Shown: positions 1 to 54,565, counted from the stretch's first letter. The stretch: 54,565 nucleotides of DNA from an uncultured Clostridia bacterium (GCA_947165815.1 CAMVBZ010000002.1:1-54565); one strand, 5' to 3'. A program made the numbers and translations. The notes: generated by a model not told the origin, from the sequence alone.

Positions 1-55
1 AAGCTTTAAAGATTTACGACAAGTTGCTATTGTATCTTTACAAGATGCTAATGTC
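1..55. repeat. Terminal direct duplication, copy 1 (identical to 54511-54565)
   Basis: aagctttaaagatttacgacaagttgctattgtatctttacaagatgctaatgtc is read at both window ends. This fits a circular or circularly permuted contig opened at an arbitrary point. Confidence 0.95.
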
Positions 56-405
56 TTTTTAGTAGAATTAATCCTTGCTTTAACCATAGTAATTTTATCA
101 TTAAGAAGGGTTTCAGCACATTCTATTACATTAGTAATTTCGTGACAGCTAAATACATTTCCAAAATTACGTAAAGCATTTATTACCTCATAATCTTTAA
201 CACCTTGAGATATATTTCTGTCAACAATATCCGATTTATGAAGATATTGTCCTGTAGATAGGTAAAGCCTATCGGTAGGAAATCTATCTATAGTAAGATG
301 TTCAGTGACTCTTACTTTTTTACATGTAAGCTTAAAATCACTTGATAAGGTATACATATATAATGTATACATTTTTGGTTTTGGAGTTTTACTTTGTTTT
401 TTCAT
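1..405 (-). CDS. Hypothetical protein: N-terminal 135 codons of a 152-aa ORF that crosses the circular junction (continues at 54510..54457)
   Basis: ATG at 405-403 is preceded by AAGAGG. I translated it by hand (MKKQSKTPKPKMYTLY...CRKSLKL). It is open to base 1 and in frame with the ORF end at 54457. It is absent from the ORF track because it is cut by the window edge. Confidence 0.7.
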   Translation of the reverse strand, partial: MKKQSKTPKPKMYTLYMYTLSSDFKLTCKKVRVTEHLTIDRFPTDRLYLSTGQYLHKSDIVDRNISQGVKDYEVINALRNFGNVFSCHEITNVIECAETLLNDKITMVKARINSTKKTLASCKDTIATCRKSLKL

Positions 406-14290: not shown

Positions 14291-15100
14291 ATGACTATCA
14301 ACGAAATGATCCAAAATATAAACCAAGCAGTTAACTATCCTGCTTTAGCATACTCTGATATTAGCTTATATTTTGATATGGCTATTGCAGAATTAAATAC
14401 AACCTTACACACAAGCATTCCTACGGTAACTCAAATGATTTCAGAATATGAACAAAGAATGTCAAAAGTTAAGAATAAGAGTATTCGTTTAGACAAAGAC
14501 CCTGAAGTTGTTAACTATGATATTCCATCCTTTGATACTTCTGCTAATGCCGCGACTGCTAAAACATTAGGATACAGATTCTATTTCGTATTTGAAACAA
14601 AGAAATTCTATGTTTTAAACAAAGTTACAAACACTTACTATGCTTGTGACAAACTTGATGGCTTCTATGTTAAAGAAGATGCTGATACCAAATACTATAC
14701 CAGTTGTATTATTGGTGATGAAGTTTTCTGGATTAAGAGCACAGTTGATAACATCTTAGAATGTGATCTAGCTGATTACCTTCCAGATGAGTGGGCATTG
14801 TTATGGATGATTCCATATATTTGCTATAAATATACCTGCAGGGATGGTGGTACTGCCACAACCTTTGCAGAAGAAATGACCCAAGGTTTCCAACAATTAC
14901 AGGAAACTTACGATGTCCCAGCTACTGTATGCCTCGCCACCTATGCAGATAGAGTTGCCTATACAAAGTTAGTTGAACAAAATTTGCCAAATTTGAATAT
15001 TAAAGTCCCAACCAGGGCCATCTACCAAGATATGAAACATAATCGTGTATCAAATGCAATCTTTGGTGGAATGTACGATAGAGGTGGTTTCGATGATTAA
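14291..15100 (+). CDS. Hypothetical virion protein (269 aa); head-tail connector candidate by position
   Basis: ORF track. AGAGG RBS. It is the first gene of the tail transcription unit. Confidence 0.75.
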   Translation: MTINEMIQNINQAVNYPALAYSDISLYFDMAIAELNTTLHTSIPTVTQMISEYEQRMSKVKNKSIRLDKDPEVVNYDIPSFDTSANAATAKTLGYRFYFVFETKKFYVLNKVTNTYYACDKLDGFYVKEDADTKYYTSCIIGDEVFWIKSTVDNILECDLADYLPDEWALLWMIPYICYKYTCRDGGTATTFAEEMTQGFQQLQETYDVPATVCLATYADRVAYTKLVEQNLPNLNIKVPTRAIYQDMKHNRVSNAIFGGMYDRGGFDD

Positions 15101-18706: not shown

Positions 18707-19633
18707 ATGGCTGATAAATATGTACAAATGCATCCATTAAACGAAACAAAAACAGCATTAGATGAATCTGTTAATGTCTACCCATTGATTGGGCCAAATA
18801 GTTTTAAGAATTTTAATCCAGAAGCTGCAACAGAACCCGATGTGTTTAAACCCCAAGAAAAGCTTGTTTCAGGCGAAAATATCAAATCTCTGGCATTTAG
18901 TGAAAAGCAACCAGCAGCAAGTCTTCTTGGTAGTGGTGTTTTAAATCTTCCACTTTTAGACCTTCTTTATCCAGTTGGGTCTATCTACATGTGTGCAGAA
19001 GATAAATTTGACGGAATATGTCCAATACAACAACTATTAGGAGGTACTTGGGTACGTATTAAAGACAAATTTATGTATGCTGCAGGTGATAATGATGAAC
19101 TTGGTGCAACAGGCGGTTCAAAAGATGCTGTTATTGTAGCACACTCCCACGAAATGACAGAAGCCCATTTAGAAACAACTGCTAATAAAAACCTTAATAT
19201 TGAATATGGTATTGGTGACTGTATTTTTATCCAAGGATTGTGGGGAAAAGACCTAAAACCTAACATCGGTTCTAAAGCTCTGGATGGTGACCAAACTACT
19301 AAAGATTTTATGTATGGTATGCAAGACTATAGTGGCGGAAATCCTACCAATGTCCCAATGGATATGCAACTAGATACCTATGTAAAAATATCAAAAGTAT
19401 CTCTTAATACAGGATATTCTTTCACCCTTAGAGATATAAACTTAAACGGACTAATGGCAACTCATACGCGTCCTGGATATAAATTAAAAATGGAGCTTGC
19501 TCACGAACACACTATTCCAAATCATAAGCATACAATTACAGCTGAAGGTGTAGATGGTACAGGTAAAAATATGCCTCCTTATCTTGTTGTTTATATGTGG
19601 AAACGTGTTGAAGAAGTAGAAAGTGAGGAATAG
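18707..19633 (+). CDS. Receptor-binding/tail-fibre-like protein with a PVGSIY...GGTW and HxH-motif domain
   Basis: LYPVGSIYM...LGGTWVRIKDKF...GATGGSKDAVIVAHSHEMT...ELAHEHTIPNHKHT resembles the metal-binding HxH tips of T4 gp12/gp10-type fibre domains. Confidence 0.6.
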   Translation: MADKYVQMHPLNETKTALDESVNVYPLIGPNSFKNFNPEAATEPDVFKPQEKLVSGENIKSLAFSEKQPAASLLGSGVLNLPLLDLLYPVGSIYMCAEDKFDGICPIQQLLGGTWVRIKDKFMYAAGDNDELGATGGSKDAVIVAHSHEMTEAHLETTANKNLNIEYGIGDCIFIQGLWGKDLKPNIGSKALDGDQTTKDFMYGMQDYSGGNPTNVPMDMQLDTYVKISKVSLNTGYSFTLRDINLNGLMATHTRPGYKLKMELAHEHTIPNHKHTITAEGVDGTGKNMPPYLVVYMWKRVEEVESEE

Positions 19634-29076: not shown

Positions 29077-32000
29077 ATGGCAATCGGTAAATTTTTAGCT
29101 CCATTAAATGGACAAATGATACAACAACAAGTTAATAAGCCATACGTGGATGACATTTTTGATCCACTCTTTAATGCTGAAGTTACCAATTACTATAGAA
29201 AACTATATGGCCCACTGGGTGGAATTGGTGCCGGGTACGCATCTATGCTCGAAAATGCACTAACAGGCAGAAAAGGTATTCTTGGCCCAGGAATGGGAAT
29301 CCTTTCCACTTTCGGGCGTTCAATGGATAAGGCAGATGATTTCATACTTGGTGGTTTGACAGAAGGTGTCAACGCTTTAGGACAAGTCACTGGTGGAACA
29401 AACGAAGCTCCACAAAATCCTTTCCGTAGAATATTTGTAGATGACTATGATTACCAAGGTACAAAGTTAATGGCAGCCGCAGGCAATGCAATGGCAAAAC
29501 TTGCAGGTGTTAATACTCCATTAACTGAACAAGACTTTACCACAATGGGTGATAAAATTGCTGGTATGTCTTTAGATCTCGCCACCGACCCTGGTATTAT
29601 GGGTGGGCAATTAGCCAGACTTAACAAAGGTACGCCAGTTGGTCAAGTTGGACAGATTTTGAACACTTATGATGATGTCGTTGCTAATGTTGCAGGTAAT
29701 ATGGCATTCCCAGGTGGTAAAGCATTAATTGGTAAAGGGCTAACACGAATCCGTGATTTCCTAGGTGGAGCAAGCTCTACCTCTCCCATCGATATGGTGA
29801 CCAAACATGAAAAAACACCAATCATTGACTTTGATTCTGGTATCACATCCTATTCTGACCTTAACCCAGACACTCTAACAACCTTAAAGAAAATGTCTGA
29901 TGACATTACCTCAGACATTAACCCAATAGATGACCCAGAACTTTATGCCATCAAAGAAGAAATTGATGGTATGACTGGCTACCTTAATCCAAGTGAACTT
30001 GCTAAATATCAACAAGATTTAGCAGCTTTTAATACTGTTCAAGCAGAGAAACTTGCTGCTAAAAATGAAGCAGTACAACGTATTATAGATACTGCTAAAA
30101 AACAACGTGAAGACATTCTTAAATCTAGTTTTGAAGGTATGGAAAAACACTCTGCAGACTTCCAAAAAGGAATGCTTAACGGTGTTGATGACAATCCTGA
30201 AGTCGGTTTTAAACAATTTGATTTTGACTGGGATGTTCAAGAATACGAAAGAAACCATCCAGAACTTTCTCCTGAAGAAATACTCAATTATAAAAATAAA
30301 ATCCGTGACAATTACGTTGTTCGTTTAAATGACTTAGACGAAGACGATTTAAGCAACTTTGTAGCAGAACATTTTGCTGAAAACGGGCAAACTGATTATT
30401 ATGGAAATCCATTACCTTTAGGACAATTTTATGAAGATGTAATGTATCGTATGGAAAATGATGGTATTGAAGAAGCTCGTAATATGGTTCTAAATAAGTT
30501 AAGCCCAACAACTAGAAATCTTTCTAAAAGTAATTTTACCTTTGCTCCAAATAGAATGGGTTTCCAAAGTGGCATTGCTAAAGATAGCCTAGACGTTATC
30601 AACTACCATTTTGAAGACTTTTTAAGAAAACATCCTAAAGGACTCTATACTACTTACCTTAAAAAAGAACTTGGTGTCGATTATGTTCCAAATGATGTCT
30701 TTGAAAACCTAGTAAAATACAGCAGAGGTAAGCTTACTAACTCAAAAGGTATTGTTACAGGTGCTAAATTCCAAGAGTTATTAGATAGCCTATACTCTAG
30801 AAAATTAGATTTAGAAGATGAGTTCAGTGGAATCTCTCAAGAAATCAGTGATAAAAGTCACAGTTTCATTCCTTGGATCAGAGAGAATGCCGGTATATTA
30901 AGCAAAACAAAACTAGGTGAAGACCTAATTGACTTAGCAGATAACCTAGAAAAGGATGTTTTTGACAACAACCTATATGAAATGGCTTCCAAAAATTTAA
31001 GTACAGAAGACGTTTCTTATGATTCCGTTATTAATCCTGCACGTTTAATGAATCAGTATTTGTCAAAAGAAAACTTTACTCCTGAAGAACTTGCACAATA
31101 TGCGAAAGATTTCCCATACTTAGACTTAAAAGTTTCCCAAGAGTATATTAAAGACTCTCCTGAATATGCAGACTATATTTATGCCCGTAACTACTACAAT
31201 GAACAACTTGCAACTATGAGAAAAGATCCAACGTTCTTTAAAGATAAAATTGCAGAAGTTCAGAAGGAACTGGCTAACTTAAAACGAGCTCCTACAGACT
31301 TGGAAAAACAACTGGAGCAATATTATATTCCAGCAAAGAAAGAATACTGGAAAAAGCTCCGTGGAAGCCCTTACGCCTATGATTACACAAACTTAACACC
31401 ATCAAATATTTATGATGCTGCTAAAAAGGTAATGGTTGCCCCAAAACCAAAGGATTATTCCAAGATTGCTGAAGGGCTCGCCACCTTTAAACCTGATGCT
31501 TTCTCTAAAGAAATCACCAGTAATTTGTCATTCCAAGATAATATCGCATTAGACACTTATGAAAAGGTATTTGGCCAATTCAAAATGGACTGGGACTTAC
31601 CAGGAGATATGCCTTATTATAGTTTAGAACCTTATATTAAAAGGTTTGCAGATAAGCCAACAAAGACATTGTTCCAACAATGGAGTGCTGCTATGCAATC
31701 CAAAGTTAAGAATAAACTTAAGACCACACATGGAGCTTTACATGTTGACATTGTTAAAAAGTCAAAAGCTCATGTGGATGCTATAAAGGATAGTGGTAAG
31801 TATTCTATTGAACAAATTGAAGAATACATTTCCAGAAAAGACCTCGCAGCAGGAGTAACCATCTCTGGTGATAATTTCCTAGAGAGTATTTGGGCTTCTC
31901 AAGGTTTTAAGGAATTTCCTGTTCCTAAAAATATGACCCAAGCACAAGCCGATATGGTTGCTGCGGCTCTTAAACAAAATGTTGATGCTGTTAATAAAAA

Positions 32001-34335
32001 CGGTAACATTCTTAAATTCATCGATGTGACGGGTGAAGACAAAGTTAGAAGAATTGCCGTTGCCTTTGATATTGACAACCTAAATATTAAGAAAGACTTA
32101 AATAAAATTTATAGCCTATTTGGTAAAAAAGATTTAGGTTTAAAAGATGTTGTCTTAAGAGGCAAAGCTCTATCAAAGACAGCCTGGGACTCTACAGAGC
32201 TTGATGATGTTTTTAACGAAATTCGTCAAGGAACTGAAGAACTGGGTACTAAACTTGGCTTTAACAAGTTTGATCCAGACTACATTGCTCATGTTAGAAT
32301 CGAAAATAAAGATGTGGGTGATGCTTTCTCTGAAATCTATAAGACCTTAGGACTTGATAAAAAGAAACTAGAACAGGTATGTGATGCTTTACAACAACAA
32401 GACATTGCCTCAGGGAAACTGGCATTCGGGGCAATCCCAATGGAACGCAGTCACCTCGGTTACTTTGGACAATATAAAACAAAGTTTGGAGCAAGTATGT
32501 TCAGCACAGACCTTTCCAAGATCCACTCTGACGCATTTACTCAAGGGATGTTTGAAAATTCCAATGCTCAAACATTTTTCGATTTATTTGTCAGTGACAA
32601 CTTTAAAATCAAAAACAACTTCGATGATGTTGCTACCTTAAAGAAGGCTCTTAACCTTACAGAAGGTAACCTTAATAACTTATCTATAGTTAAACCAAGA
32701 TATAGTGATACAGGTAAACTTATCGGATTCACTAAATACGACAAATTCAGTGATGCAGCCCTTGCAAAGGCTTTTGCTGACCAAGATGCCATCCTAGTTC
32801 CTGATGCTGTAATAGGTTCTTTAGACAGAATGTGCAAAAAAGATGCACGTATGTCAAATAAAGTTTACGCCTTCATTAACAAGTACCTTACAGTCCCGTT
32901 CAAGTTTGGTACTCTAGCCAATCCTGGATTCCTTGCAGGTAACATCCAAGATGCTTACTTTAAGCAAGCCACTGAATTAGCCAAAAAGTATGGCACAACA
33001 GTTAGTGATGAGCTCACCAACGTGGCATTCTCAATGCGTCAAGTGACCCAACTCAATAACAATTTCAGTGACATCTTTGATGAATACAAACAATGGTTAA
33101 AAGACACTGACCTCTCCACTATCACCAGAAGTGATAGACCAGTGGACTGGTATCTTAACACATTCAAGAAATCCAAGAATACTGTAGATACTTTAACGAT
33201 TGACCAAATCGTTTCCAATCCAGAAATGTATGGAGCTTTTAAACAATACATCAGTCTTCACGTTCCTGCAGAGAAACAAAAAATGGCCAACCTATATCTC
33301 TACTTAAATAACAATCAAACCTCAACATTATTTAAGAATAACAATAGGGATTTAGAAAACGTTACAGACCTCATTACAGATAACCCATACGCTGTTCCAA
33401 ACAATATCTTTGAACGTATTATGTATGGTGACCCGTCAAAAATGAAAGTTGTTAACATTAATGGACAATTACGCCAAGTCCAAGATAGAGGATTCAACTC
33501 CTGGGGCTTGTTCTTAAATAATCCAGTTAGCAATAGAATTTTGAAAACATCAAATACGATCGAAAACTGGATGCGTTCCGCCACAATCTTAAATGATCTA
33601 CAACACCAAGGATACACAGTTGAAGATATTTGTGAAATCCTAGGTACTGATAAAACTGCTGAAAAAGCATTGCGTGCTAAATTCAACATGTCAATGAACG
33701 AAGCTCTTAATACAATGTATGCTGCTAACTTTGACTATGATAATGTTAGTGAGGTTATGAACAAAGCTTCTTACATCCTTCCATTCCCAACATTCTACTT
33801 AAAGAACTTGGCATTCTGGGCAGATATATTCACCAACAAACCACAATATATCGACAACGTGCTCAGTGTTCACGAAAATTTATGGGCAGGAAAAGATACC
33901 TCCAAAGATGAATTTACCGCGGAAGCCAAAGGTAGAGGTGCCGTCCCAATCGGACAACAAAATAAACATTTGACAGGTATTGTTAAACAAACACCTTACA
34001 ACTCAATGTTCGGTGCATTCAATGCAATTAATAACTTCAAAGAAGACTTTGCTTACAGAACCAATCCAGCGTTGCGTCCAATCGCTCGCCACCTTCAAAA
34101 GCCAGAAGATGTGAAATACCGTCCGTATAACACACAACAATTCCAAAAGAATATTAAACAAGGTGATAAAGATTTCTCTGAGTTAGCGTATATGTTCCAT
34201 CAACTTAACCCATACGAAAGATTTATTAACACCGGTTTAAGAACGCCAGGCAAAGTCGCAAATAATACATACCAAATGAGTGACTTCTTGCCAAGTATGT
34301 TCCAGCCAGATTTCAGCAAGAAGTCATCTAAATAA
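29077..34335 (+). CDS. Giant virion protein (1752 aa); candidate internal/ejection protein
   Basis: Uninterrupted 5.3-kb ORF at the end of the structural arm, after the membrane and glycine-rich genes. Gly-rich N-terminus (GPLGGIGAGYASM...GILGPGMGIL). No catalytic motif recognised by eye. Confidence 0.8.
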   Translation: MAIGKFLAPLNGQMIQQQVNKPYVDDIFDPLFNAEVTNYYRKLYGPLGGIGAGYASMLENALTGRKGILGPGMGILSTFGRSMDKADDFILGGLTEGVNALGQVTGGTNEAPQNPFRRIFVDDYDYQGTKLMAAAGNAMAKLAGVNTPLTEQDFTTMGDKIAGMSLDLATDPGIMGGQLARLNKGTPVGQVGQILNTYDDVVANVAGNMAFPGGKALIGKGLTRIRDFLGGASSTSPIDMVTKHEKTPIIDFDSGITSYSDLNPDTLTTLKKMSDDITSDINPIDDPELYAIKEEIDGMTGYLNPSELAKYQQDLAAFNTVQAEKLAAKNEAVQRIIDTAKKQREDILKSSFEGMEKHSADFQKGMLNGVDDNPEVGFKQFDFDWDVQEYERNHPELSPEEILNYKNKIRDNYVVRLNDLDEDDLSNFVAEHFAENGQTDYYGNPLPLGQFYEDVMYRMENDGIEEARNMVLNKLSPTTRNLSKSNFTFAPNRMGFQSGIAKDSLDVINYHFEDFLRKHPKGLYTTYLKKELGVDYVPNDVFENLVKYSRGKLTNSKGIVTGAKFQELLDSLYSRKLDLEDEFSGISQEISDKSHSFIPWIRENAGILSKTKLGEDLIDLADNLEKDVFDNNLYEMASKNLSTEDVSYDSVINPARLMNQYLSKENFTPEELAQYAKDFPYLDLKVSQEYIKDSPEYADYIYARNYYNEQLATMRKDPTFFKDKIAEVQKELANLKRAPTDLEKQLEQYYIPAKKEYWKKLRGSPYAYDYTNLTPSNIYDAAKKVMVAPKPKDYSKIAEGLATFKPDAFSKEITSNLSFQDNIALDTYEKVFGQFKMDWDLPGDMPYYSLEPYIKRFADKPTKTLFQQWSAAMQSKVKNKLKTTHGALHVDIVKKSKAHVDAIKDSGKYSIEQIEEYISRKDLAAGVTISGDNFLESIWASQGFKEFPVPKNMTQAQADMVAAALKQNVDAVNKNGNILKFIDVTGEDKVRRIAVAFDIDNLNIKKDLNKIYSLFGKKDLGLKDVVLRGKALSKTAWDSTELDDVFNEIRQGTEELGTKLGFNKFDPDYIAHVRIENKDVGDAFSEIYKTLGLDKKKLEQVCDALQQQDIASGKLAFGAIPMERSHLGYFGQYKTKFGASMFSTDLSKIHSDAFTQGMFENSNAQTFFDLFVSDNFKIKNNFDDVATLKKALNLTEGNLNNLSIVKPRYSDTGKLIGFTKYDKFSDAALAKAFADQDAILVPDAVIGSLDRMCKKDARMSNKVYAFINKYLTVPFKFGTLANPGFLAGNIQDAYFKQATELAKKYGTTVSDELTNVAFSMRQVTQLNNNFSDIFDEYKQWLKDTDLSTITRSDRPVDWYLNTFKKSKNTVDTLTIDQIVSNPEMYGAFKQYISLHVPAEKQKMANLYLYLNNNQTSTLFKNNNRDLENVTDLITDNPYAVPNNIFERIMYGDPSKMKVVNINGQLRQVQDRGFNSWGLFLNNPVSNRILKTSNTIENWMRSATILNDLQHQGYTVEDICEILGTDKTAEKALRAKFNMSMNEALNTMYAANFDYDNVSEVMNKASYILPFPTFYLKNLAFWADIFTNKPQYIDNVLSVHENLWAGKDTSKDEFTAEAKGRGAVPIGQQNKHLTGIVKQTPYNSMFGAFNAINNFKEDFAYRTNPALRPIARHLQKPEDVKYRPYNTQQFQKNIKQGDKDFSELAYMFHQLNPYERFINTGLRTPGKVANNTYQMSDFLPSMFQPDFSKKSSK

Positions 34336-36462: not shown

Positions 36463-36991
36463 GTGGATTCCTTTCTGTTTTGTATTTAATGAAGTATAGA
36501 AGGTGCTTTAGAGCATCTCTAATGTGGTCGTTGATTTGCTTACCATTTAGATAATATCGGCCATTACTACGTTTTTCAAAATTTGGAATATAGGATGGTA
36601 AGGCTTCGTCTTTGAAACGGGACTTGGCTTGGGTTGGAGTTTGTAAAACGTAGTCAACTCCGATATTAGATTCTAAATAATATTCTAAAGCACCTATCAT
36701 TTGGATTGTTTCTGGCATTTTTCCCATTAAAAAACCTTGTGTTCTAATCATAAAGCTTTCAATGATTACCTTAGTATCTAGATTTGTTCTTGGTTCAGGA
36801 TCTATATAAAAAGTATGTAATCTAACTGTATTCATTACATCTGCCCAGTATTGTGTCCTGGAGTCATAATCTTTAGCAGCTAAACTAATGTGTTTTAATG
36901 TGCTCCAGTCATTATCTTTAATAATGACAATGCCTGTGTGTCCTTTACCTTCATTAAAACTGCCTGAAGGGTCTATAAAAATGTATTTCAT
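36449..36991 (-). CDS. RuvC-like Holliday-junction resolvase
   Basis: The N-terminus MKYIFIDPSGSFNEGKGHTGIVII matches the RuvC-fold first-strand Asp motif. ATG 36991 overlaps the upstream stop (ATGA). Confidence 0.55.
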   Translation of the reverse strand: MKYIFIDPSGSFNEGKGHTGIVIIKDNDWSTLKHISLAAKDYDSRTQYWADVMNTVRLHTFYIDPEPRTNLDTKVIIESFMIRTQGFLMGKMPETIQMIGALEYYLESNIGVDYVLQTPTQAKSRFKDEALPSYIPNFEKRSNGRYYLNGKQINDHIRDALKHLLYFIKYKTERNPHGKS

Positions 36992-37446
36992 AATACTAAC
37001 CACCTTTCTAGAGTTTCATCTGAGATGTTAACAAATCCTTTAACTTTATTTAGTTCATTAGGATTTTCATTTAGGATTTTACTACACGTAAATATTCTAC
37101 GTTTAGATATCCAAGTAGCTTCACCAAGAACTACACCAGCTTTAATTCTTTTTGAAGTATTATTACTTGCTTTTACTGAAATAATATCTTCTTTAGAAAT
37201 ATTATAAGCCTTAAACTTTGTAGTTAATGGGATAACTAACATTTTTTCTTGGGAAGGAACAGAATTTCTGAGACAGATAGCCAGATGTCTACCTGAAAAC
37301 TCTGTTCCTGGATTCATTCCGAAGTCTACCTCATAAATTTCACCTACTCTAGTAATAAATCTTGGAGAAGTTGGCGTGTTTAGATAAATTTTTAAACGTC
37401 TGAACCACGCTTCAATAGAGTTTTCTCTTTTTTCTTTAGGAGTCAT
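36988..37446 (-). CDS. MazF/PemK-like toxin-fold protein (152 aa)
   Basis: RVGEIYEVDFGMNPGTEFSGRHLAICLRN...KMLVIPLTTK follows the MazF/PemK pattern G-[DE]-[IV]-[YW]-x-[VA]-[DF]...G-x-E-x-x-G-x-R-[PH]...[VI]-P-[LI]-T. It has a 34-aa N-terminal extension. Confidence 0.5.
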   Translation of the reverse strand: MTPKEKRENSIEAWFRRLKIYLNTPTSPRFITRVGEIYEVDFGMNPGTEFSGRHLAICLRNSVPSQEKMLVIPLTTKFKAYNISKEDIISVKASNNTSKRIKAGVVLGEATWISKRRIFTCSKILNENPNELNKVKGFVNISDETLERWLVL

Positions 37447-46351: not shown

Positions 46352-46894
46352 TTATTCCTCCACGGGCTTTATAACGCCTAAACTGAATAAAACGTCTACA
46401 AGTTTAGCGATGTCTACTTCATAAGTTCCACGAGATTTTAATTCTTTATCAATTAAATCCATAAGATCTGGAGTTCCTTTAATAGCATCTTCTTCTACAC
46501 TTGCAACCCACATTCTGTCTATTGCATTATAGCAATCCTTTAGAAGTTTTACCACATTTAATAGGCACTCTGGATTTTTAGAGATACTTTCATTAAGTCC
46601 AAATTCATATTCAGAACGTATTCCAGGGATAATCATAACTGGAGATACTTTAATTTTAAAAGCTAGTCTATCATAGTTAAGAGGATCTGCACCACCCATT
46701 GCGGTGATAACATTACAGAAGATCTTACAATATTTAGATATTTTTCTTATCTCATCCATGAGCTCTAGATGATGACTAAGGTCTTTTGTTTTTAAAGATA
46801 AAAAACCTATACTTCTATGAATATTTGGAAAACCTGGATATGGAAATTCCACTAAACCAGGTCTATAAAATAGGGTGTCCGTTGTCGCCATCAT
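46352..46894 (-). CDS. Hypothetical protein (180 aa)
   Basis: Start moved to ATG 46894 (MMATTDTLFY...), which has AAGGAGGG 5 nt upstream. The track start at 46927 has no RBS. Confidence 0.7.
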   Translation of the reverse strand: MMATTDTLFYRPGLVEFPYPGFPNIHRSIGFLSLKTKDLSHHLELMDEIRKISKYCKIFCNVITAMGGADPLNYDRLAFKIKVSPVMIIPGIRSEYEFGLNESISKNPECLLNVVKLLKDCYNAIDRMWVASVEEDAIKGTPDLMDLIDKELKSRGTYEVDIAKLVDVLFSLGVIKPVEE

Positions 46895-47480
46895 CTGTGC
46901 CCTCCTTATTAAATGGGTTTTCTGCATTTGATTTGTTATGTTCTTCTAAAACTGTACCAGAAGGTACGAAAAATCCTAATGCAAGAAGAATTTCTGCTGC
47001 TTTATCAGCATTAAGTATAAAATCACCTTTTTCAAGGATAGTTTTAGCTATCGTAGATACCATTGTACTAATGTATTCCGAATATACTAAAATCTCTCCA
47101 AGTTTATGTCCGTGAATTTCTACTATATGGTCTGAATTTGTACTTATTATAGGATGTTCTATAGATTTAAGTATTGGTTGAATATTTAATTTATGATTCT
47201 CAAAAGTACCCATTGTCGTATGTAATTCACTAATAGTAGTCATTAATCGAGATTTTACTTCTGTAAGAGAATGTTCTAAATCTTTAATGTTTGTAGTATT
47301 TGTAGCAATGTCAGCTAGATGATCATTTAAACTAGATTGAATAGAAGCAAGAGCTGGTCTTAAATTTTCAGCTAACTTTGTTACAAATTTAACACAACCA
47401 TCCACAGTACCTGCAAGTTCTGTGATTTTCTTTGACATATCTTCAAGAGATAATTTTTTAGGCTTTTCTTTTTTAGGCAT
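46863..47480 (-). CDS. Coiled-coil hypothetical protein (205 aa)
   Basis: ORF track. GGAGG RBS. Basic N-terminus MPKKEKPKK. Confidence 0.7.
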   Translation of the reverse strand: MPKKEKPKKLSLEDMSKKITELAGTVDGCVKFVTKLAENLRPALASIQSSLNDHLADIATNTTNIKDLEHSLTEVKSRLMTTISELHTTMGTFENHKLNIQPILKSIEHPIISTNSDHIVEIHGHKLGEILVYSEYISTMVSTIAKTILEKGDFILNADKAAEILLALGFFVPSGTVLEEHNKSNAENPFNKEGTDDGDNGHPIL

Positions 47481-47494
47481 AATAAAAGTACCTC

Positions 47495-47932
47495 CTAAAG
47501 TTTTTCTAAATCTTCTTTAGATATATTACCTAAAACACCGCCTATGTCATAAATCGCAAAGATAAAATCACGTATACTTTTCTTATACACAACATCTAAA
47601 AGATGACGTTTTATAACTGGAGGATTTATGGTAAATTCTTCAGCATATTGTTTTTGTTTTTGCCAATAGATACCAGAAATGGCTTTTATTGGACGTACTG
47701 TTAAGCCTAACTTATTCAATAAGTAATAAGTTTCTTTTTCATCTGGACAATTTTCGTTAGCTGTTAGGATTCTTGCAGATTGAACGATTGCTCTGCTATT
47801 GATACCATAAAGGGTACAAATTGCTGTAATTGTTTGCCAGAATAATGCACTGGCTAAAATCTTTGAGTCCTTATTATTGAAATACAAGTAGAATAAGACT
47901 TCAAAAAGTCTATCTTTTTCTTCTTGATTCAT
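47495..47932 (-). CDS. Hypothetical protein (145 aa)
   Basis: ORF track. AAAGGAAA upstream. Confidence 0.7.
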   Translation of the reverse strand: MNQEEKDRLFEVLFYLYFNNKDSKILASALFWQTITAICTLYGINSRAIVQSARILTANENCPDEKETYYLLNKLGLTVRPIKAISGIYWQKQKQYAEEFTINPPVIKRHLLDVVYKKSIRDFIFAIYDIGGVLGNISKEDLEKL

Positions 47933-48086
47933 TTGTATTTCCTTTTCTTGTGATCCTTACGAATACACGATTTTTACGTGGTTCGTTAACGCATGTGCAG
48001 GGTGTTAAAAAAGAACAACCTGTTCTAGAACATTCTCCTGCGGAATAATAAGGACATGATGTGTGTTCACGCATATATTTTTTCAT
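47910..48086 (-). CDS. Micro-ORF, 58 aa, Cys-rich and basic (MKKYMREHTSCPYYSAGECSRTGCSFLTPCTCVNEPRKNRVFVRITRKGNTNESRRKR)
   Basis: Hand translation. ATG overlaps the upstream stop (ATGA). It fills the otherwise non-coding 150-bp gap. Just below the track cutoff. Confidence 0.45.
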   Translation of the reverse strand: MKKYMREHTSCPYYSAGECSRTGCSFLTPCTCVNEPRKNRVFVRITRKGNTNESRRKR

Positions 48087-48313
48087 CTGTATTTCTTTGC
48101 CTCCTTATGCAATTCATCGAAATTGTCAGAGAACTTAACGACTTTATGACAATACGTTATAATCATTTGATGTGCGTAGTGGTCATACGTAACATACCAA
48201 TGGTTACCACGTTTTTCAAAGTTTCTTAAGCTTTCATCTGGAAAGTGTGTAGCTAGGATTCTTCCATTTTCTAGCAAACAATAACGTTTAGTATAACCTG
48301 GTGCTCTTGCCAT
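48083..48313 (-). CDS. Hypothetical protein (76 aa)
   Basis: ORF track. Starts 2 nt after the vWA gene stop. Confidence 0.7.
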   Translation of the reverse strand: MARAPGYTKRYCLLENGRILATHFPDESLRNFEKRGNHWYVTYDHYAHQMIITYCHKVVKFSDNFDELHKEAKKYR

Positions 48314-48315
48314 AG

Positions 48316-50586
48316 TTAAACCTCCTTCTTTTCAAGAACATAACGTTTCAAAATAGAAACAACAATGTTCGTCATTTCCTGTAAGTTTCTGCCATTTGCG
48401 TTATCTGGGTAGTATTCTTTAATTGATTCAAAGTTAATACCTACACCGATAACGTGTATGCCATTCTTTTCCATGTGACGAACTTGTTGCTTTAATTCAT
48501 CATCTGTACATTCTGTTGGTTGTCCATCTGAGAAAATAATAACAATTTTGTCTTTATTTTTCACATGTTTCATACAACTTTCCATATAATACAGAGAAGC
48601 ACTATCGCAATTACCACAATGGGCACGTGCTTGTGCTAAAGAATATGGTTTTGATAATGTAAATGTGTTTTCTTCTTTAAATTGAAAATACTTAAAGATT
48701 TTACTTTGATGAAAACCATCGCTAGTATGTCCAATGATACTATGATTGATACTTAAAGAAGTAAGAACTTCGTGTAACATAATCATAACAATACGGCCAT
48801 TTTTAACTTTTTCACCACTCATTGAACCTGATTGGTCTAAAATACATCCAAATGCTAAATCCATTTCTTTTAACTTGTAACTATTATTACAAAAGATATG
48901 TGGATCTGTTTTGTATTTATAGAGATTTTTCTTATCTAATTTACCTGTGAGTAAGCCACCTTGCTTACCACCGGTGTTATAAGTCTTAATCTCTTTAATC
49001 TGTTTAGTAAGAACACGTGTAAGCATTTTAATATTTGAAGCGATGGTATTGTAGTCTTCTTTATTACCTGTTTCAGTTTTTACATAACTAATGTCAAAAG
49101 AATACTTAGACTTAGATTTTGCTAAATCAGATTTTAAAGCATCCATTGGAGAAAGCATTGATGGTGTTTCTTTACGTTTTTTAGTTACTTCTTTTTCACT
49201 ATCAGCAAAGCTTCCTAACGAATCATCAGCACCATCGTATGAATCAAGACTTAAATCTAAAAATTCATCATTGTCATCATAATAGTCATCATCCTCATCG
49301 TCATCAGGATCTCCACTACCCATACCAGTTCCTGGCATACAGTGCCTAATAGCACTATCTTTATCAATAAGGCCTTTACTTTTAGCCTCATTATATAAAA
49401 ACATAGCATGTTTAATTCTAGATACCTGAAAAGCATAAGAATGCATAGACATAATAAGTTTTGCAAACATAATAGGTAACGCATAAAACTCTAAATCTGA
49501 AAGAGGATTTGTATTTAATTCAGGTGCTTTTAATAATGAAGCTAATAAATTTCTAAAGTTAGTAAATCTTAATAAAGTGTCATCGTCAAAACAAGACTTA
49601 ATATTACTATTAATGACAAGTTCTCCTGACGGACTGAATGAGTATAAAAATTTACTACAGAAGCTATCTTCTTGATATGTGCTAGATAGTAAGTCAGTTA
49701 AGACTTCTACCACAGCAGGGTCATCAATTTTTGATAAATGATAAAGGATTTCTGCACCATACACAATAGCGTAACTTAATCCTATTTTATAAACATCTGC
49801 ACCTAATTCTGGGAATTTACTAAATAACATACTTTCTACAGCTTCTTTTGGAAAGGATAACGCTGGTTTATAAAATAAAACATTTATACTTCCTAACATA
49901 CTTCTGCTTTCACATGGTTCAGCATAAACTGTTGAAGTATCCATATTATTAAATTCCCAAAGAGTTTGAAGAAGTGGGCATATATTTCTAGCCAAAGCTT
50001 CTTTAGCAAAAACAATATTTTCCATATCATCCAAGCTTCTGTTATAAAACTTTGTATTCAAATAAAATAAGTTTGGAATTAAACTACTTTTTGAATAACA
50101 TTTTTCTAATAATGTAAATAAAGCTTTCAAAAATCCTTGGTTTTCTAAGGCATTAATCAACGATGGATTTGTTGTAGGTGTTGTAAATGCTGGATACCTT
50201 AAACCAAGGTCAGTTAAAAGAGCTTCTTCATTTACTCGTAAATCATCATACTTAATAAAAGTTCCACAATATCCACAGTTGTTCATTAGCATACAAAGGT
50301 TTTGTAAACCTGTTTGATCATAAGAACAAATGTTAGGAATTTTTAAATCTGGATTTAATTCCATATAATCTGTTGCATTTGTTCCACCTAAACGGGTGGC
50401 TAAATCTAATTCAGTATTATTGGACTTAACGAATACATTAAAAGCTCCTGTAAATGTGTTGTTTTTATAAAACAATGCACGATCTTTAAGAACATAGTCA
50501 TGTGGATTAGCTAAAATTTTAGCAGTGTTGTAAATTGTTTGAATTTTTGTGGTACCTAGTACTCTTTCAACTTCGCTGCTTCCCAT
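48316..50586 (-). CDS. CobT-like protein: novel N-terminal domain, polyacidic linker and C-terminal vWA domain
   Basis: MIDAS motif in LAFGCILDQSGSMSG, with a downstream IIFSDG. The linker is GDPDDDEDDDYYDDNDEF. Start set to ATG 50586, with AGGAGG 8 nt upstream (the track start is TTG). Confidence 0.8.
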   Translation of the reverse strand: MGSSEVERVLGTTKIQTIYNTAKILANPHDYVLKDRALFYKNNTFTGAFNVFVKSNNTELDLATRLGGTNATDYMELNPDLKIPNICSYDQTGLQNLCMLMNNCGYCGTFIKYDDLRVNEEALLTDLGLRYPAFTTPTTNPSLINALENQGFLKALFTLLEKCYSKSSLIPNLFYLNTKFYNRSLDDMENIVFAKEALARNICPLLQTLWEFNNMDTSTVYAEPCESRSMLGSINVLFYKPALSFPKEAVESMLFSKFPELGADVYKIGLSYAIVYGAEILYHLSKIDDPAVVEVLTDLLSSTYQEDSFCSKFLYSFSPSGELVINSNIKSCFDDDTLLRFTNFRNLLASLLKAPELNTNPLSDLEFYALPIMFAKLIMSMHSYAFQVSRIKHAMFLYNEAKSKGLIDKDSAIRHCMPGTGMGSGDPDDDEDDDYYDDNDEFLDLSLDSYDGADDSLGSFADSEKEVTKKRKETPSMLSPMDALKSDLAKSKSKYSFDISYVKTETGNKEDYNTIASNIKMLTRVLTKQIKEIKTYNTGGKQGGLLTGKLDKKNLYKYKTDPHIFCNNSYKLKEMDLAFGCILDQSGSMSGEKVKNGRIVMIMLHEVLTSLSINHSIIGHTSDGFHQSKIFKYFQFKEENTFTLSKPYSLAQARAHCGNCDSASLYYMESCMKHVKNKDKIVIIFSDGQPTECTDDELKQQVRHMEKNGIHVIGVGINFESIKEYYPDNANGRNLQEMTNIVVSILKRYVLEKKEV

Positions 50587-50598
50587 AAGCAAATCCTC

Positions 50599-52605
50599 CT
50601 AAATCTTTGCAGTTAAAGACATTGCTGACAAGACTGTTGTCATAAAATGTTCAAGATGGTCAGGTTCTTCTACAAATGCTTGATAAAGCATTAAGTTAGT
50701 AACTGCTTCTTTGATATTCTTATAGTATTTACCTTGTCTAAAGACATTAAGTAATTGTCTAATAGACACGATAATACCTAAATTTTGTTCGTCACTATAT
50801 TTCTTAACAGCTTTATACACATCATAGACTCTATTAATGACATCTGTTTTTGTGTATCCTGTTCTACTTCTAATGACTTCTTTAGCTTCTTTTTCATCTA
50901 AGTCTACGAACTTATGACAAACTTCAAAACGGTTAACTAAAGCCTTATTTAACCTATTTGTGCCTTCATAGGCAATGTTTGTAGTTGCAATAAGCTTAAA
51001 GTTTTTATGTGCTTTAACGATTTCACCGTTTGGTAAATCGATTTGATGTGCTTCGTCTAACAAAGAATTAAGCTTCATTAAGACACCTGGTCTAGCACCA
51101 CCTAATTCTTCAACAATGGCAACATAACCATAACGAACTGCTTTTGTTAATGGGCCATCCTGCCAAATAAATTCTGGATCATCTGCAGACTTCTTGGTTG
51201 GATTTGGAATCATTGTTCCAAACATATCTGATTCTTCAATGTTTGTAGAGCAGTTGATTGCAACAAATGGTAAACCACATCTACTTGCTAAAACTCTAGC
51301 TGCTGTAGATTTACCTGTACCTGAATCACCTTCAAATAACATTGAATAGACATCACCTTTTGCCATACCTCTGACTAATCCAGTTAATTCTTTTAAATCA
51401 AAAGAAGCATAATAAGGTTGTACTTGTTTATAAAGTTCTTGTGCGTATGCATCTTTAGAATAATATTCTTCAAGAGTTTCTGTAGCACCTTCAAACTTAA
51501 TAGTACTACCTATAAAGTAACCTTTATAAAGGTCTTTATTTGTGTTTTCAGAAATAGTTGGATAAAGTTCTAGCAATGCCTCAAACTCTGTAGCATCATT
51601 AGAAATAATAACTTCTGGAGATTTACTTGAAAGTAACTTATCTAAAGGAACACATTTAACTTCATACTTATCAAGCTTTGGAGAGAGTTCTGCTAAATTA
51701 GAAACAAGATTAGGAATCCATTCTAAAATCTCGAACACGTTAAACTCTCTTAAAGAATTGTTTGTATAAACAACGCCTTTAGCTTTGTCGATAAGATAAT
51801 ATTCTTTACAAGTCACGTTAATAATACAGAGAACTTGTGCAGCTCCTGTCTTAATGACATTGTAAACAAATGTAGAACCATATTTAGTAGAACTTAAATC
51901 TTTAATAAATGGTGTATACATCGAATGTGTATACTGAACACTCTTAAAGAAAATTTCTTCACTTAATGGAATACATTCCACTCTCATAGTTTCAGGAGTA
52001 TCTCCGTAGTTATAAATTAAAGATTGTAAATCTGATTCTAAGATAGTAAGTTCGCCCGTATCCTTAGTTCCTAATACAGGACATATTTTATCGAAGGTGG
52101 CTAAAAATTTAGCTAAACAATAGAAGTACATAACGACTTCTTTACAGCTAGGGCCTACGTTATTCATATATTGTAGGATTTTCCTATCTAAAAATAACGT
52201 AATATCGGCAGGGTCTGTAGCGTTCTCACGAACACCATAGCCGATACGTAAATCTGTAATGGTAATACCCATACCTTTTAAAGGTTTGAATAAGAAGTTA
52301 GTATCCCTAATGTTCTTAAAGATATAGTAATTAGCTGAATAAACGTTACTATCATTACGTAGATTACCTACTAATTTCATAGAACGGTATGCCATACCTA
52401 CGTCTTTTTTAGTAACGATAGTTCTCATAAGTTCAAATAATGGAACTACATATTTTTCATTAAACCCTGAAAAACCTTCAAATGACAAACGGGTTAAATT
52501 AGTGGCTAAACCTGAAGCGTCATTGATTCTGACAATAGGTGTCATCATTCCGACATTGCCACTTGTTTCTAAAATAAGGTCTTTTTTCTCAATATCAATA
52601 AGCAT
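50599..52605 (-). CDS. AAA_5 (CobS/MoxR/dynein-related) ATPase with a ~400-aa uncharacterised N-terminal region
   Basis: Walker A GDSGTGKST, Walker B region YVAIVEELGGARPGV, then NFKLIATTN...LNKALVNRF. The pattern parallels CobS. Confidence 0.8.
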   Translation of the reverse strand: MLIDIEKKDLILETSGNVGMMTPIVRINDASGLATNLTRLSFEGFSGFNEKYVVPLFELMRTIVTKKDVGMAYRSMKLVGNLRNDSNVYSANYYIFKNIRDTNFLFKPLKGMGITITDLRIGYGVRENATDPADITLFLDRKILQYMNNVGPSCKEVVMYFYCLAKFLATFDKICPVLGTKDTGELTILESDLQSLIYNYGDTPETMRVECIPLSEEIFFKSVQYTHSMYTPFIKDLSSTKYGSTFVYNVIKTGAAQVLCIINVTCKEYYLIDKAKGVVYTNNSLREFNVFEILEWIPNLVSNLAELSPKLDKYEVKCVPLDKLLSSKSPEVIISNDATEFEALLELYPTISENTNKDLYKGYFIGSTIKFEGATETLEEYYSKDAYAQELYKQVQPYYASFDLKELTGLVRGMAKGDVYSMLFEGDSGTGKSTAARVLASRCGLPFVAINCSTNIEESDMFGTMIPNPTKKSADDPEFIWQDGPLTKAVRYGYVAIVEELGGARPGVLMKLNSLLDEAHQIDLPNGEIVKAHKNFKLIATTNIAYEGTNRLNKALVNRFEVCHKFVDLDEKEAKEVIRSRTGYTKTDVINRVYDVYKAVKKYSDEQNLGIIVSIRQLLNVFRQGKYYKNIKEAVTNLMLYQAFVEEPDHLEHFMTTVLSAMSLTAKI

Positions 52606-54441
52606 CTAAAACACCACCTTCTTTCTAATCGATGCTACTAACGGTGCTATGTCTTCAGCATACAGCACACGTTTAGACGATAATTGTTCAATTAATTTAG
52701 TTAGAACATTCTTATTTTCTTCTACATTAAACTCATCAAGTAGATCTTCATAAATTTTATGTATTCTATCTAATACGATTTGTTCTAACTTATCTGTTTC
52801 ATAAGGTTCTAAGTTATAATCTTTATAATAACTTTTTAAAATTGCTTTTGCTTTAGCTAAATCGTTACTAGCACCATTTGTGATATACCCACAAATAGTT
52901 TCTTCTGCTACACGTCCACCTAAAAGCATACGAATATGGTCAATGAACTTTTCTTTTGATAAAAGTCCTGTCATAACTGATGCTGTTTGTGTAAAACCCC
53001 CAGCATCTCCATAAGAATAATTAGTAACTTTAATTGGAATTGTGTCATTATATAACACTTCAGCAAGAACATGTCCGCATTCATGAGCAGTAACTAATTT
53101 TATAAATTCAGATTCACCATCTGGATGTCTGATATTCTTTGTAATAACTTTGTTTACTGCTTCATTAATGTTATCTAATGTAATTTCGGATTTACCTTGT
53201 CTAATAGTTAAGATACCTGCTTCATTAGAAATTTCTTTAATGTCTGCAGGAGTTAAACCTTTTGTTAAATCTGAAATTGTTTCATGTTTAACACCAGCTT
53301 CTAATGGCATTTTGATTTTATCAAAATAATACTTAACCATGTGTAAACGTTCAAAGTCATCAGGATAGTCAATCGTAATTTGTCTACCAAATCTACCTGA
53401 ACGCATTAATGCACTATCTAATCTTTCAGGGAAGTTTGTAGCAGCTAACACCATAATGTTTTCAGACTCTGTGAAGCCTGACATTTCAGCTAGAAGTTGA
53501 TTAAGTGTTCTATCTTCCTCGCCACCTGCACCTCCTGAACGATTTTGTCTATCACCAAAGCTATCTAATTCATCAATGAATAAGATAACACCTTTACCTG
53601 ACTTTTCAGATAATACTTTGGCAGCCTTGAAAATCATTCTAATATTTTCTGCACCTGAACCGATATACTGTCCTTGCAAAGCAGATGCTGTACATGTCAT
53701 AAAGAAACAATCTACAGTGCCTGCAATACAACGGGCTGCATAGGTCTTACCTGTGCCCCAAGGGCCTTTAAATAAAATACCTTTAGGGATATTTACACCA
53801 GCACTTTTGTATGTTGCAGAATGCTCAAAGAAATCTCTAATTTCTTCTAATTCTGTTTTTAATAAAGGATTACAGATATAATCTGCTAATGTTTCTTTAG
53901 GTTTTACAACCTCAGCCTTAGTATTCTTACTAATTTCTTCACAAAGCCTATCAATGTCTGTAGTTGGTGTACTACCTGTTGGCATTGTAGCACCTACAGC
54001 AGAAGCCATACTTGATAATGTTGCTGAAATAGTTTTAGCACTGCTTATTGTTCTCACAAAGATATCTGGAAGTTCTGCATGAATATTACCTATAATAGTA
54101 TCCACAGCAACTCTAGTATCTTTTGTAATAGTAGCTGTTGGATCTGTACTTGCTTCCATAAGGATTCCAGTCTTTCCTGGATCTATTGTTAAAGTGATTA
54201 CACAGAAATCTTTATCAAAGGTATCATAAATCCAAATAATTAAGGATTGTAATCCTCCATTAAGATAAATTTTTTCTATTGTATTAAGAACATTGTTCTT
54301 AACCCAGTCATAATCAACTTTATCAACGTCAGTAGTTGCCTTAAAAGTCTTACCAAAATCATTTGTCCAGGCTAAAGGTGTTAGAGTTTCGAGATATTCT
54401 TTCTTTACATTTGCTACTCTTACTGTAATTTGTTCTGGCAT
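52606..54441 (-). CDS. FtsH-family AAA+ zinc metalloprotease lacking transmembrane segments
   Basis: Walker A GPWGTGKT, Walker B ILFIDELD, SRH region LAATNFPERLDSALMRSGRF. M41 protease motifs TAHECGHVL, GGRVAEE and GASNDL. The N-terminal ~190 aa have no hydrophobic helix. Confidence 0.85.
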   Translation of the reverse strand: MPEQITVRVANVKKEYLETLTPLAWTNDFGKTFKATTDVDKVDYDWVKNNVLNTIEKIYLNGGLQSLIIWIYDTFDKDFCVITLTIDPGKTGILMEASTDPTATITKDTRVAVDTIIGNIHAELPDIFVRTISSAKTISATLSSMASAVGATMPTGSTPTTDIDRLCEEISKNTKAEVVKPKETLADYICNPLLKTELEEIRDFFEHSATYKSAGVNIPKGILFKGPWGTGKTYAARCIAGTVDCFFMTCTASALQGQYIGSGAENIRMIFKAAKVLSEKSGKGVILFIDELDSFGDRQNRSGGAGGEEDRTLNQLLAEMSGFTESENIMVLAATNFPERLDSALMRSGRFGRQITIDYPDDFERLHMVKYYFDKIKMPLEAGVKHETISDLTKGLTPADIKEISNEAGILTIRQGKSEITLDNINEAVNKVITKNIRHPDGESEFIKLVTAHECGHVLAEVLYNDTIPIKVTNYSYGDAGGFTQTASVMTGLLSKEKFIDHIRMLLGGRVAEETICGYITNGASNDLAKAKAILKSYYKDYNLEPYETDKLEQIVLDRIHKIYEDLLDEFNVEENKNVLTKLIEQLSSKRVLYAEDIAPLVASIRKKVVF

Positions 54442-54456: not shown

Positions 54457-54565
54457 CTAAGGGATTACTTCTACTTTCATAGATTCTAACGTAGCTAACT
54501 TTTGTTCATAAAGCTTTAAAGATTTACGACAAGTTGCTATTGTATCTTTACAAGATGCTAATGTC
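54457..54565 (-). CDS. C-terminal end of the junction-spanning 152-aa ORF (see 1..405)
   Basis: Reading 54510 down to 54457 gives YEQKLATLESMKVEVIP-stop, in frame with codon 135 at base 1. Bases 54511-54565 duplicate 1-55. Confidence 0.7.
   Translation of the reverse strand, partial: TLASCKDTIATCRKSLKLYEQKLATLESMKVEVIP
54511..54565. repeat. Terminal direct duplication, copy 2 (identical to 1-55)
   Basis: Exact 55-nt match read directly. Confidence 0.95.

Follow-up and report, generated by a model that had tools for sequence, protein, structure and literature searches.

Why should a phage carry an FtsH-like protease end to end with two proteins that resemble CobS and CobT, and do the three work together? 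The question is raised by a 54,565-nucleotide (nt) stretch of DNA from an uncultured Clostridia bacterium (GCA_947165815.1, CAMVBZ010000002.1:1-54565), hereafter called the window (i.e. the whole stretch), in which three minus-strand genes fill positions 48316-54441. These genes encode an FtsH-type protease of 611 amino acids (aa; 52606-54441), an AAA_5 ATPase of the CobS/MoxR clade of 668 aa (50599-52605) and a CobT-like protein with a von Willebrand factor A (vWA) domain of 756 aa (48316-50586). We find that this trio is a conserved block of closely spaced genes, shared by a large clade of uncultured tailed phages of ~54 kb. Tentatively, we propose that it forms a coupled remodelling-and-degradation machine, in which a CobS/CobT-type remodeller is joined to a soluble FtsH-type protease. 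An earlier reading of the locus, made from the sequence alone (the sequence-only reading), had suggested a pathway of this kind, and we follow its claims below.

The gene layout is compact. Open reading frame (ORF) calls reproduce the three minus-strand genes, the TAG/ATG junction and the 12-nt gap of the sequence-only reading, and all the motifs that it quoted are present in the translated proteins. The TAG stop of the protease gene directly abuts the ATG of the AAA_5 gene at 52606/52605 (…GTGTTTTAGATGCTT…). The TAG stop of the AAA_5 gene, in turn, falls within a Shine-Dalgarno sequence, TAGGAGGA, which is followed by a 7-nt spacer and then by an ATG at 50586. Read from a TTG, the vWA ORF would span 48316-50592 and encode 758 aa. 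Since the Shine-Dalgarno sequence and its spacer place the ATG at 50586, this is the likely true start; the 12-nt gap at 50587-50598 is then real, and the vWA protein has 756 aa, as first estimated. Scans of the locus for sigma-70 promoters and terminators gave no excess over shuffled expectation.

FtsH rings unfold their substrates and degrade them, and the first protein of the trio reads as a genuine FtsH-type unfoldase-protease. Its Pfam matches are AAA (2e-33), Peptidase_M41 (1.5e-15) and AAA_lid_3, and the Peptidase_M41 match, with 58 bits where the cut-off is 29.9, covers only profile positions 9-105 of 191. The protein begins with a variable N-domain of ~130 aa and a Ser/Thr/Ala-rich linker (133-161), followed by the AAA module (~196-440) and the M41 domain (~448-611). 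There is a single AAA module (Pfam match 222-358), with the motifs GPWGTGKT (226-233) and FIDELD (288-293), the pore loop YIG (259-261) and the second region of homology (SRH; 335-350, RSGR present). In the M41 domain, HECGH (453-457), the zinc-binding and catalytic motif, is followed by GGRVAEE (508-514) and GASNDL (523-528). By motif search and alignment, HECGH lies at 53071-53085 and GASNDL, with Asp527, at 52858-52875, both on the minus strand. By the structural literature on FtsH, Asp527 would be the third zinc ligand.

These residues are kept across the family. HExxH, Walker A, Walker B (DE[LI]D) and the SRH arginines occur in 118/118 FtsH-like homologues, and the zinc-ligand Asp in nearly all of them; in a 40-sequence alignment of the protease, K232, D290, E291, Y259, G261, R347, R350, H453, E454, H457 and D527 are invariant. 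The FtsH structures 2ce7 and 8vw9 align as a single stretch with protease residues 196-542 (~200 bits), and identity to FtsH is ~35% over residues 195-600. The score against the FtsH equivalog TIGR01241 (300.3 bits) is below its cut-off of 600. Cellular FtsH is anchored at its N-terminus by two transmembrane helices with a periplasmic domain. Here no transmembrane segment was found, the maximum Kyte-Doolittle mean over 19 residues being about 1.2-1.4 (1.19 in the protease). With nothing in it hydrophobic enough to form a membrane helix, the protease is soluble. Pfam and motifs thus uphold the complete FtsH AAA module and M41 protease that had been read from the sequence, and hydropathy upholds its cytosolic nature.

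The second protein combines a family-specific alpha/beta N-module (1 to ~380) with a CobS-like ATPase domain (~385-668). The latter matches Pfam AAA_5 (3.4e-23) and carries the motifs GDSGTGKST (426-434), IVEELGG (497-503) and LIATTN (538-543). Compared with the Protein Data Bank (PDB), the family profile matched the AAA domains of midasin, CobS 9ujv, CbbQ and NorQ; the CobS match (3e-15) covers chain residues 49-296 of 328. Together with Pfam, these profiles agree with the earlier assignment of the C-terminal part to the AAA_5/CobS/MoxR type. Among PHROG families the match is phrog_249 ('porphyrin biosynthesis', CobS-like). Walker A is present in 103/103 long AAA_5 homologues, where nearly every P-loop reads G(D/E)SGTGKS, and 90/103 have the sensor-1 motif; K432, E499, E500, N543, R559 and R616 are invariant in the family.

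In the third protein, a mostly helical N-region (1 to ~420) leads into a polyacidic linker (425-456, with the acidic run itself at 425-442) and a C-terminal vWA domain with a MIDAS (metal ion-dependent adhesion site). The MIDAS consists of DQSGSMSG (584-591, with DQSGS at 584-588) and SDG (686-688), and its elements DxSxS and (S/T)DG are kept in 10/10 vWA homologues. Pfam reports VWA (9e-6) and CobT_C (2.6e-5), PHROG reports the CobT families phrog_5298 and phrog_17276, and the family profile matches CobT 9uka_G (1.3e-13) over chain residues 246-597 of 637, i.e. the linker and the vWA domain. A vWA/MIDAS domain behind a CobT-like polyacidic linker, as first described from the sequence, is therefore borne out by Pfam, the CobT profile match and the motifs.

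Taken literally, these names would make the pair a true cobalt or metal chelatase motor that hijacks a host subunit of CobN type for cobalamin supply, with the FtsH gene unrelated to it. CobS and CobT are indeed the best named relatives, two-gene cobST clusters are widespread in tailed viruses, and a CobN hijack has already been proposed for them (PMC8651126). For this locus we judge such a motor highly improbable, because the scores are sub-threshold (36.8 bits for the ATPase against the cut-off of 558.55 of the CobS equivalog TIGR01650, and no NCBIfam match, to a CobT model or otherwise, for the vWA protein), because the ATPase carries a further N-module of 380 aa that CobS lacks, and because no CobN-like match was found among the window ORFs scanned with Pfam and/or PHROG, the 1216-aa and 1752-aa proteins included (several ORFs had one library or, like several mid-size plus-strand ones, none). 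Moreover, in profile comparison midasin, CbbQ, NorQ and GvpN are no more distant from the ATPase than CobS is, and the sole host hint is an uncultured Clostridia bin. Since none of the scores reaches equivalog level, we describe the trio as FtsH-type and CobS/CobT-type proteins, and not as orthologues of the cellular enzymes.

The trio is found as a unit well beyond the window. In metagenomes, the AAA_5 family has more than 100 clusters and the FtsH-like family at least 118 full-length proteins among 1,473 matches, and many family members come from contigs about 52-56 kb long. We inspected some 13 distinct contigs related to the window, 11 of them with enough flank, and in 11/11 of the latter the FtsH-like, AAA_5 and vWA genes are adjacent in this order; on shortened contigs (insufficient flank) the expected part of the block is present. 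Co-conservation reaches down to 43% identity for the FtsH-like protein, 33% for the AAA_5 protein and 28% for the vWA protein. The genes of relatives either overlap or are separated by 4-12 nt, and the block is stable between variable immediate neighbours. Correlation of the three proteins' pairwise identity matrices gives r=0.97-0.98, which indicates that the trio is co-inherited as a unit. Among GenBank phages, megablast with the 6.1-kb region gave no match, and tblastn gave only distant FtsH (<=37%), CobS (21%) and CobT (<=28%) homologues that are never mutually adjacent. The sequence-only reading had proposed co-occurrence of the three genes in related phages as a check, and it had named what might speak against it. 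On these points the genes prove co-conserved, the N-terminal regions do not turn out to be known unrelated enzymes, and the catalytic and binding residues are not degenerate: Walker A/B, HExxH and the MIDAS are retained across homologues.

Each protein also carries an N-terminal region of its own, of about 170-195 aa in the protease, 380-405 aa in the ATPase and 425 aa in the vWA protein. For all three, Pfam gave nothing even at E<=10 and phmmer against the PDB gave nothing, and Foldseek with the ATPase and vWA models was equally unproductive, so the earlier statement that these regions could not be assigned still holds. All three are nonetheless real, structured regions. For the ATPase N-module (1-405), AlphaFold2 with a 97-sequence alignment returned an alpha/beta model with a predicted local distance difference test score (pLDDT) of 93.5 and a predicted template modelling score (pTM) of 0.89. 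Gelsolin-like repeats, the best PDB match in Foldseek, were rejected as relatives of this module (E 0.027, TM-score ~0.12), and a Foldseek search of BFVD gave nothing significant (best E 3.5e-3, TM-score 0.11). A phmmer search against 1.84 billion representative proteins gave 12 matches, all of them family members of ~620-670 aa or fragments, so at the sensitivity of a single-sequence search the module appears confined to its own architecture. For the vWA N-region (3-425), a shallow alignment gave a mostly alpha-helical model (pLDDT 72.5), and Foldseek found nothing for it in the PDB (CobT structures included).

Divergence of the N-terminal regions is much faster, by a factor of about three, than that of the catalytic cores. 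For the FtsH-like protein, mean pairwise identity amounts to 0.20 in the N-region vs 0.61 in the core; the corresponding values are 0.20 vs 0.64 for AAA_5 and 0.41 vs 0.77 for vWA. Between the window and a 97% identical contig (L029), the ratio of nonsynonymous to synonymous substitution rates (dN/dS) ranges from 0.01 to 0.07 for the cores and from 0.10 to 0.33 for the N-terminal regions, values that point to purifying selection on the trio proteins. Variability of this kind fits specificity or docking modules.

How might such a machine work? In the coupled model that we tentatively favour, the parts play the roles known from CobS-CobT, RavA-ViaA, CbbQ-CbbO, NorQ-NorD and midasin: the variable N-modules and the MIDAS site would select and bind a client protein, which the AAA_5 ring would remodel or extract. 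Degradation of the client, or of the product of remodelling, would fall to the FtsH-like ring. The protease itself would be a soluble hexamer, expected to act in the cytoplasm because its variable ~130-aa domain and flexible linker replace the membrane anchor. Substrates would be threaded through it, past the Y259-I-G pore loop, to the M41 zinc site (H453, E454, H457, D527). We infer that the pair and the protease are physically coupled and that the target is a host or phage protein. A more specific and more doubtful version, which we consider possible but unlikely, holds that the trio is a virus-encoded three-part machine for targeted proteolysis, whose lineage-specific N-modules aim a segregase and a protease at host proteins involved in defence or takeover.

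Several observations weigh against coupling. On a contig from human faeces (MT835792.1, L019; 1787-6048) and on a second one (L035; 2296-6549), a long AAA_5 gene (624 and 641 aa, respectively) is followed by a long CobT-like vWA gene (743 and 758 aa); these pairs adjoin the gene for single-stranded DNA-binding protein (SSB), and no FtsH-like gene accompanies them. Rhizobium phage RHph_X66 (L040; 4333-8072) has the order CobT(778)-CobS(431)-sigma70…PolIII, likewise without FtsH. Given these three cases, the CobS/CobT-like pair does not need a protease. In addition, no second, independent recurrence of the trio was seen among the matches listed from viral, GTDB-genome and metagenome contigs, in scans outside the clade that used degenerate peptide patterns, some very clade-specific; the matches listed there were clade members or unrelated short AAA_5 genes only. 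Adjacency is documented in one phage clade only, where the gene order of the replication arm is also conserved over the extent of the loci; synteny by itself is weak evidence for physical coupling. The N-regions, judged from the one close pair (window and L029), are under relaxed purifying and not positive selection.

The same observations suit a simpler explanation, namely that the genes are independent neighbours. The pair would then be a chaperone with its own client, the protease would act separately (in proteostasis or in the degradation of a host regulator), and their adjacency would reflect phage synteny. The outgroup pairs agree with this, as do jumbo-phage FtsH homologues that lack an adjacent CobST pair (such FtsH genes are described in PMC7318152), and so does the conserved order of the replication module in the loci that we fetched. 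On the other side, all relatives have the trio genes abutting or overlapping, the block is kept whole between changing neighbours, and the three proteins diverge together. The same three domain families are also linked in bacterial ternary systems: MoxR, vWA and FtsH-type AAA+ proteins are associated there as well (PMC7159879), a precedent that supports the coupled model. On balance, mere neighbourhood is a serious contender that we nevertheless hold to be improbable.

The outgroups also bear on the history of the module. In hhalign comparisons of the family profile with the L019 and L035 AAA_5 proteins, the ATPase domain alone aligned, and homology of the N-modules between phage clades was therefore rejected. 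In view of these outgroups, the pair is the phage unit of greater age and wider spread, its N-modules being interchangeable, and the protease is an addition specific to this clade. The L019 and L035 ATPases have, besides, a large insertion inside AAA_5 after the position equivalent to MIPNP. Another human faecal contig, labelled as phage (MT836043.1, L020; 7779-11252), encodes a 386-aa AAA ATPase followed by a 768-aa subtilase (Peptidase_S8); it was rejected as an instance of this system, since it resembles an IetA/IetS-like defence pair of ATPase and protease.

The genomic setting helps to weigh what the client might be. Positions 1-55 of the window are identical to 54511-54565, which marks it as a fully assembled circle of ~54,510 bp; its GC content is roughly 35%, and no tRNA genes were found in it. 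The genome is that of a tailed phage. Its structural arm, on the plus strand, includes a portal protein (8946-10853), a major head protein (11807-13567) and a Gp10-like baseplate protein (18707-19633), and a large terminase gene (TerL; 6862-8592, plus strand) encodes a protein with 37% identity to TerL of Paenibacillus phage API480. The replication genes lie on a minus-strand arm with an SNF2 helicase, a Sak4-like AAA_24 protein, SSB, a primase, a family A polymerase and a YqaJ exonuclease. The trio sits at the head of this arm, a position that suggests early or middle expression. Its span of 6.1 kb is 11% of the 54-kb phage genome, a share large enough to suggest that the trio matters for infection. 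As for the host, the sole GTDB species-genome match listed is a free-standing contig of 53.9 kb, which was binned with an uncultured Clostridia metagenome-assembled genome and gives no more than a hint; no integrated copy was seen among the matches listed from a single genome scan.

With this setting in mind, the trio could also be a chaperone for assembly or maturation of the phage virion, tail or replisome, in which the protease serves for processing or quality control. Maturation of dedicated complexes is the general task of MoxR-vWA pairs, and one viral case is known: in Acidianus two-tailed virus, the MoxR-type protein p618 and the vWA protein p892 provide an analogue for tail assembly (PMC7159879). 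An assembly role would also agree with the trio being part of a vertically inherited core gene set, and the outgroup pairs, too, lie in replication modules, beside SSB, sigma or polymerase genes. However, the trio is found in the replication arm and not in the structural arm, its N-modules evolve fast and are non-homologous between clades, which would be unexpected for a conserved client, and prohead-protease-like features were not found. An assembly chaperone is, in our judgement, quite unlikely.

If the coupled machine has further parts, the flanking genes are where they might be sought. A conserved ORF of 145 aa (47495-47932, minus strand; tblastn 43-70% identity) lies downstream of the vWA gene, and tblastn also finds it there in L001, L002, L004, L005, L007, L008 and L010. 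It directly follows the vWA gene in relatives with called genes or ORF lists, and in the window a 76-aa ORF (48083-48313) intervenes. This ORF is a candidate for a fourth component, an adaptor or a substrate. Upstream of the FtsH-like gene, a conserved 119-aa ORF (3342-3701, minus strand; tblastn 36-70% identity, seven loci) directly precedes the protease gene in most relatives, and inserted genes intervene in the window and in L001; it could be a further component or substrate. Pfam and PHROG scans of both ORFs were empty. Across the circular junction of the window, a 152-aa ORF (405..1, then 54510..54460, minus strand) terminates 15 nt upstream of the protease gene, with no homologue in the related contigs.

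The stretch upstream of the trio differs from relative to relative. In the window, the inserted genes include a DprA homologue (1548-2339, minus strand; Pfam DNA_processg_A 1.8e-61), a member of a host recombination-mediator family linked to natural transformation. The corresponding stretch encodes a Macro-domain protein in L004 (3768-4202) and a SpoVG homologue in L002 (5336-5614). These differing small genes suggest a hot spot for accessory genes. Elsewhere in the genome, two structural-arm proteins of 1216 aa (15045-18695, plus strand) and 1752 aa (29077-34335, plus strand) have zero Pfam or PHROG matches. Within the replication module, between the DNA polymerase and exonuclease genes, lies the gene for a 152-aa protein with a PemK/MazF-like toxin domain (36988-37446, minus strand; Pfam 5e-5, PHROG mazE/MazF-like). 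Two further minus-strand ORFs, 46352-46927 (191 aa) and 46863-47480 (205 aa), overlap by 65 nt and are weakly conserved among relatives; in view of this poor conservation, their start sites are uncertain.

The significance of the trio lies in what it suggests about a much larger group of genes. Genes resembling cobS and cobT are common in phages, being core genes in cyanophages and occurring in Vibrio, Rhizobium, Gordonia and haloarchaeal viruses; to our knowledge, they are routinely annotated as cobalamin biosynthesis genes without experimental support. A CobS/CobT-type pair in a co-inherited block with an intact soluble protease, as documented here with more than 100 distinct metagenome homologues behind the block, offers a testable hypothesis, namely that the pair works on proteins. 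It suggests that phage 'cobalt chelatase' genes may act on proteins and not on vitamin B12. The ATPase also contributes a confidently modelled 380-aa domain without a match to a known fold. If the targets are host proteins, the trio would be a new kind of tool for phage takeover or counter-defence and a compact model for MoxR-vWA remodellers that feed AAA+ proteases. Should targeted proteolysis be its function, it would be a viral counterpart of the Cdc48-adaptor-proteasome logic, and the widespread phage 'cobS/cobT' genes would be those of protein remodellers rather than of vitamin-B12 enzymes.

How, then, does the trio compare with known systems? The closest precedent in composition is bacterial. 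The 'FtsH ternary systems' defined computationally by Kaur et al. 2020 (PMC7159879) consist of a MoxR ATPase, a vWA protein and an FtsH-type AAA+ protein; they are found in multicellular bacteria and are called conflict systems. Of the two AAA+ domains in their FtsH component, the N-terminal one is inactive, with no mention of an M41 peptidase; their MoxR P-loop reads GXXXTAKS, their vWA domain is often degenerate, and their effectors (for example caspase-like, radical S-adenosylmethionine or ubiquitin-like proteins) are separately encoded (PMC7159879). In the simple type, a large all-alpha domain forms the N-terminal part of the vWA protein (PMC7159879). The trio resembles these systems in its conserved linkage of the three gene types, with a MoxR-clade ATPase and a vWA protein next to an AAA+ protein of FtsH type. 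It differs in that its protease has a single, active AAA domain (the preceding ~170 aa are too short for a second and give no AAA match), and in its intact M41 domain, intact MIDAS, P-loop GxxGTGKS and phage core-genome setting. The sequence-only reading had not recognised the pairing, in a phage early operon, as a described system. This statement needs a proviso: an association of MoxR, vWA and FtsH-type proteins is known in bacteria (PMC7159879), with a different architecture. Our literature search found no published phage in which a soluble FtsH protease is combined with a CobS/CobT-like pair.

This comparison also bears on whether the trio might be a phage-borne conflict system homologous to the bacterial ones, acting in superinfection exclusion or abortive infection. 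The three domain families are the same, and the large helical N-region of the vWA protein recalls the 'simpler' ternary type. Nevertheless, the two-AAA+ FtsH component is absent, the P-loop and MIDAS differ as described, and the trio is a fixed core block that diverges together with the genome and not a variable island. Membership in a known defence system was rejected, since PADLOC gave generic AAA matches only (IetA, TRIP13). All told, we regard a conflict system as very unlikely.

Viral pairs of MoxR/CobS and vWA proteins are already known (PMC8651126, PMC2147016). The trio differs from viral cobST clusters in that its pair forms a single block together with an FtsH-type protease, an arrangement for which those clusters offer no reported case. 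With CobS-CobT themselves it shares an AAA_5 ATPase and a partner in which a polyacidic linker leads to a C-terminal vWA domain with MIDAS, the best PDB matches being CobS 9ujv and CobT 9uka; the PHROG families of the pair bear annotations of porphyrin or cobalamin biosynthesis. Unlike CobS (~330 aa), the trio ATPase has 668 aa, with the additional N-module, and the N-terminal 420 aa of the vWA protein are without a CobT match.

Isolated, 'host-like' FtsH genes have been described in the jumbo phages PA5oct and MIJ3 (PMC7318152). The trio protease is like cellular and jumbo-phage FtsH in combining an AAA module with an HExxH/Asp zinc protease and in keeping its pore loop and SRH arginines intact. 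It is unlike them in having a variable soluble N-domain in place of a transmembrane anchor and periplasmic domain, and in being paired with a CobS/CobT-like module. The broadest likeness is to the MoxR-vWA machines as a group, in which MoxR-clade rings and a vWA/MIDAS partner grip a client peptide and remodel the client (PMC7159879). In common with RavA-ViaA, CbbQ-CbbO, NorQ-NorD, midasin/Rea1 and p618-p892 of Acidianus two-tailed virus, the trio has the parts for an AAA_5 ring with a MIDAS adaptor gripping a client. Those pairs serve clients such as rubisco, nitric oxide reductase, pre-60S particles and a viral tail and are not coupled to a dedicated AAA+ protease, whereas the pair described here is encoded in one block with such an enzyme.

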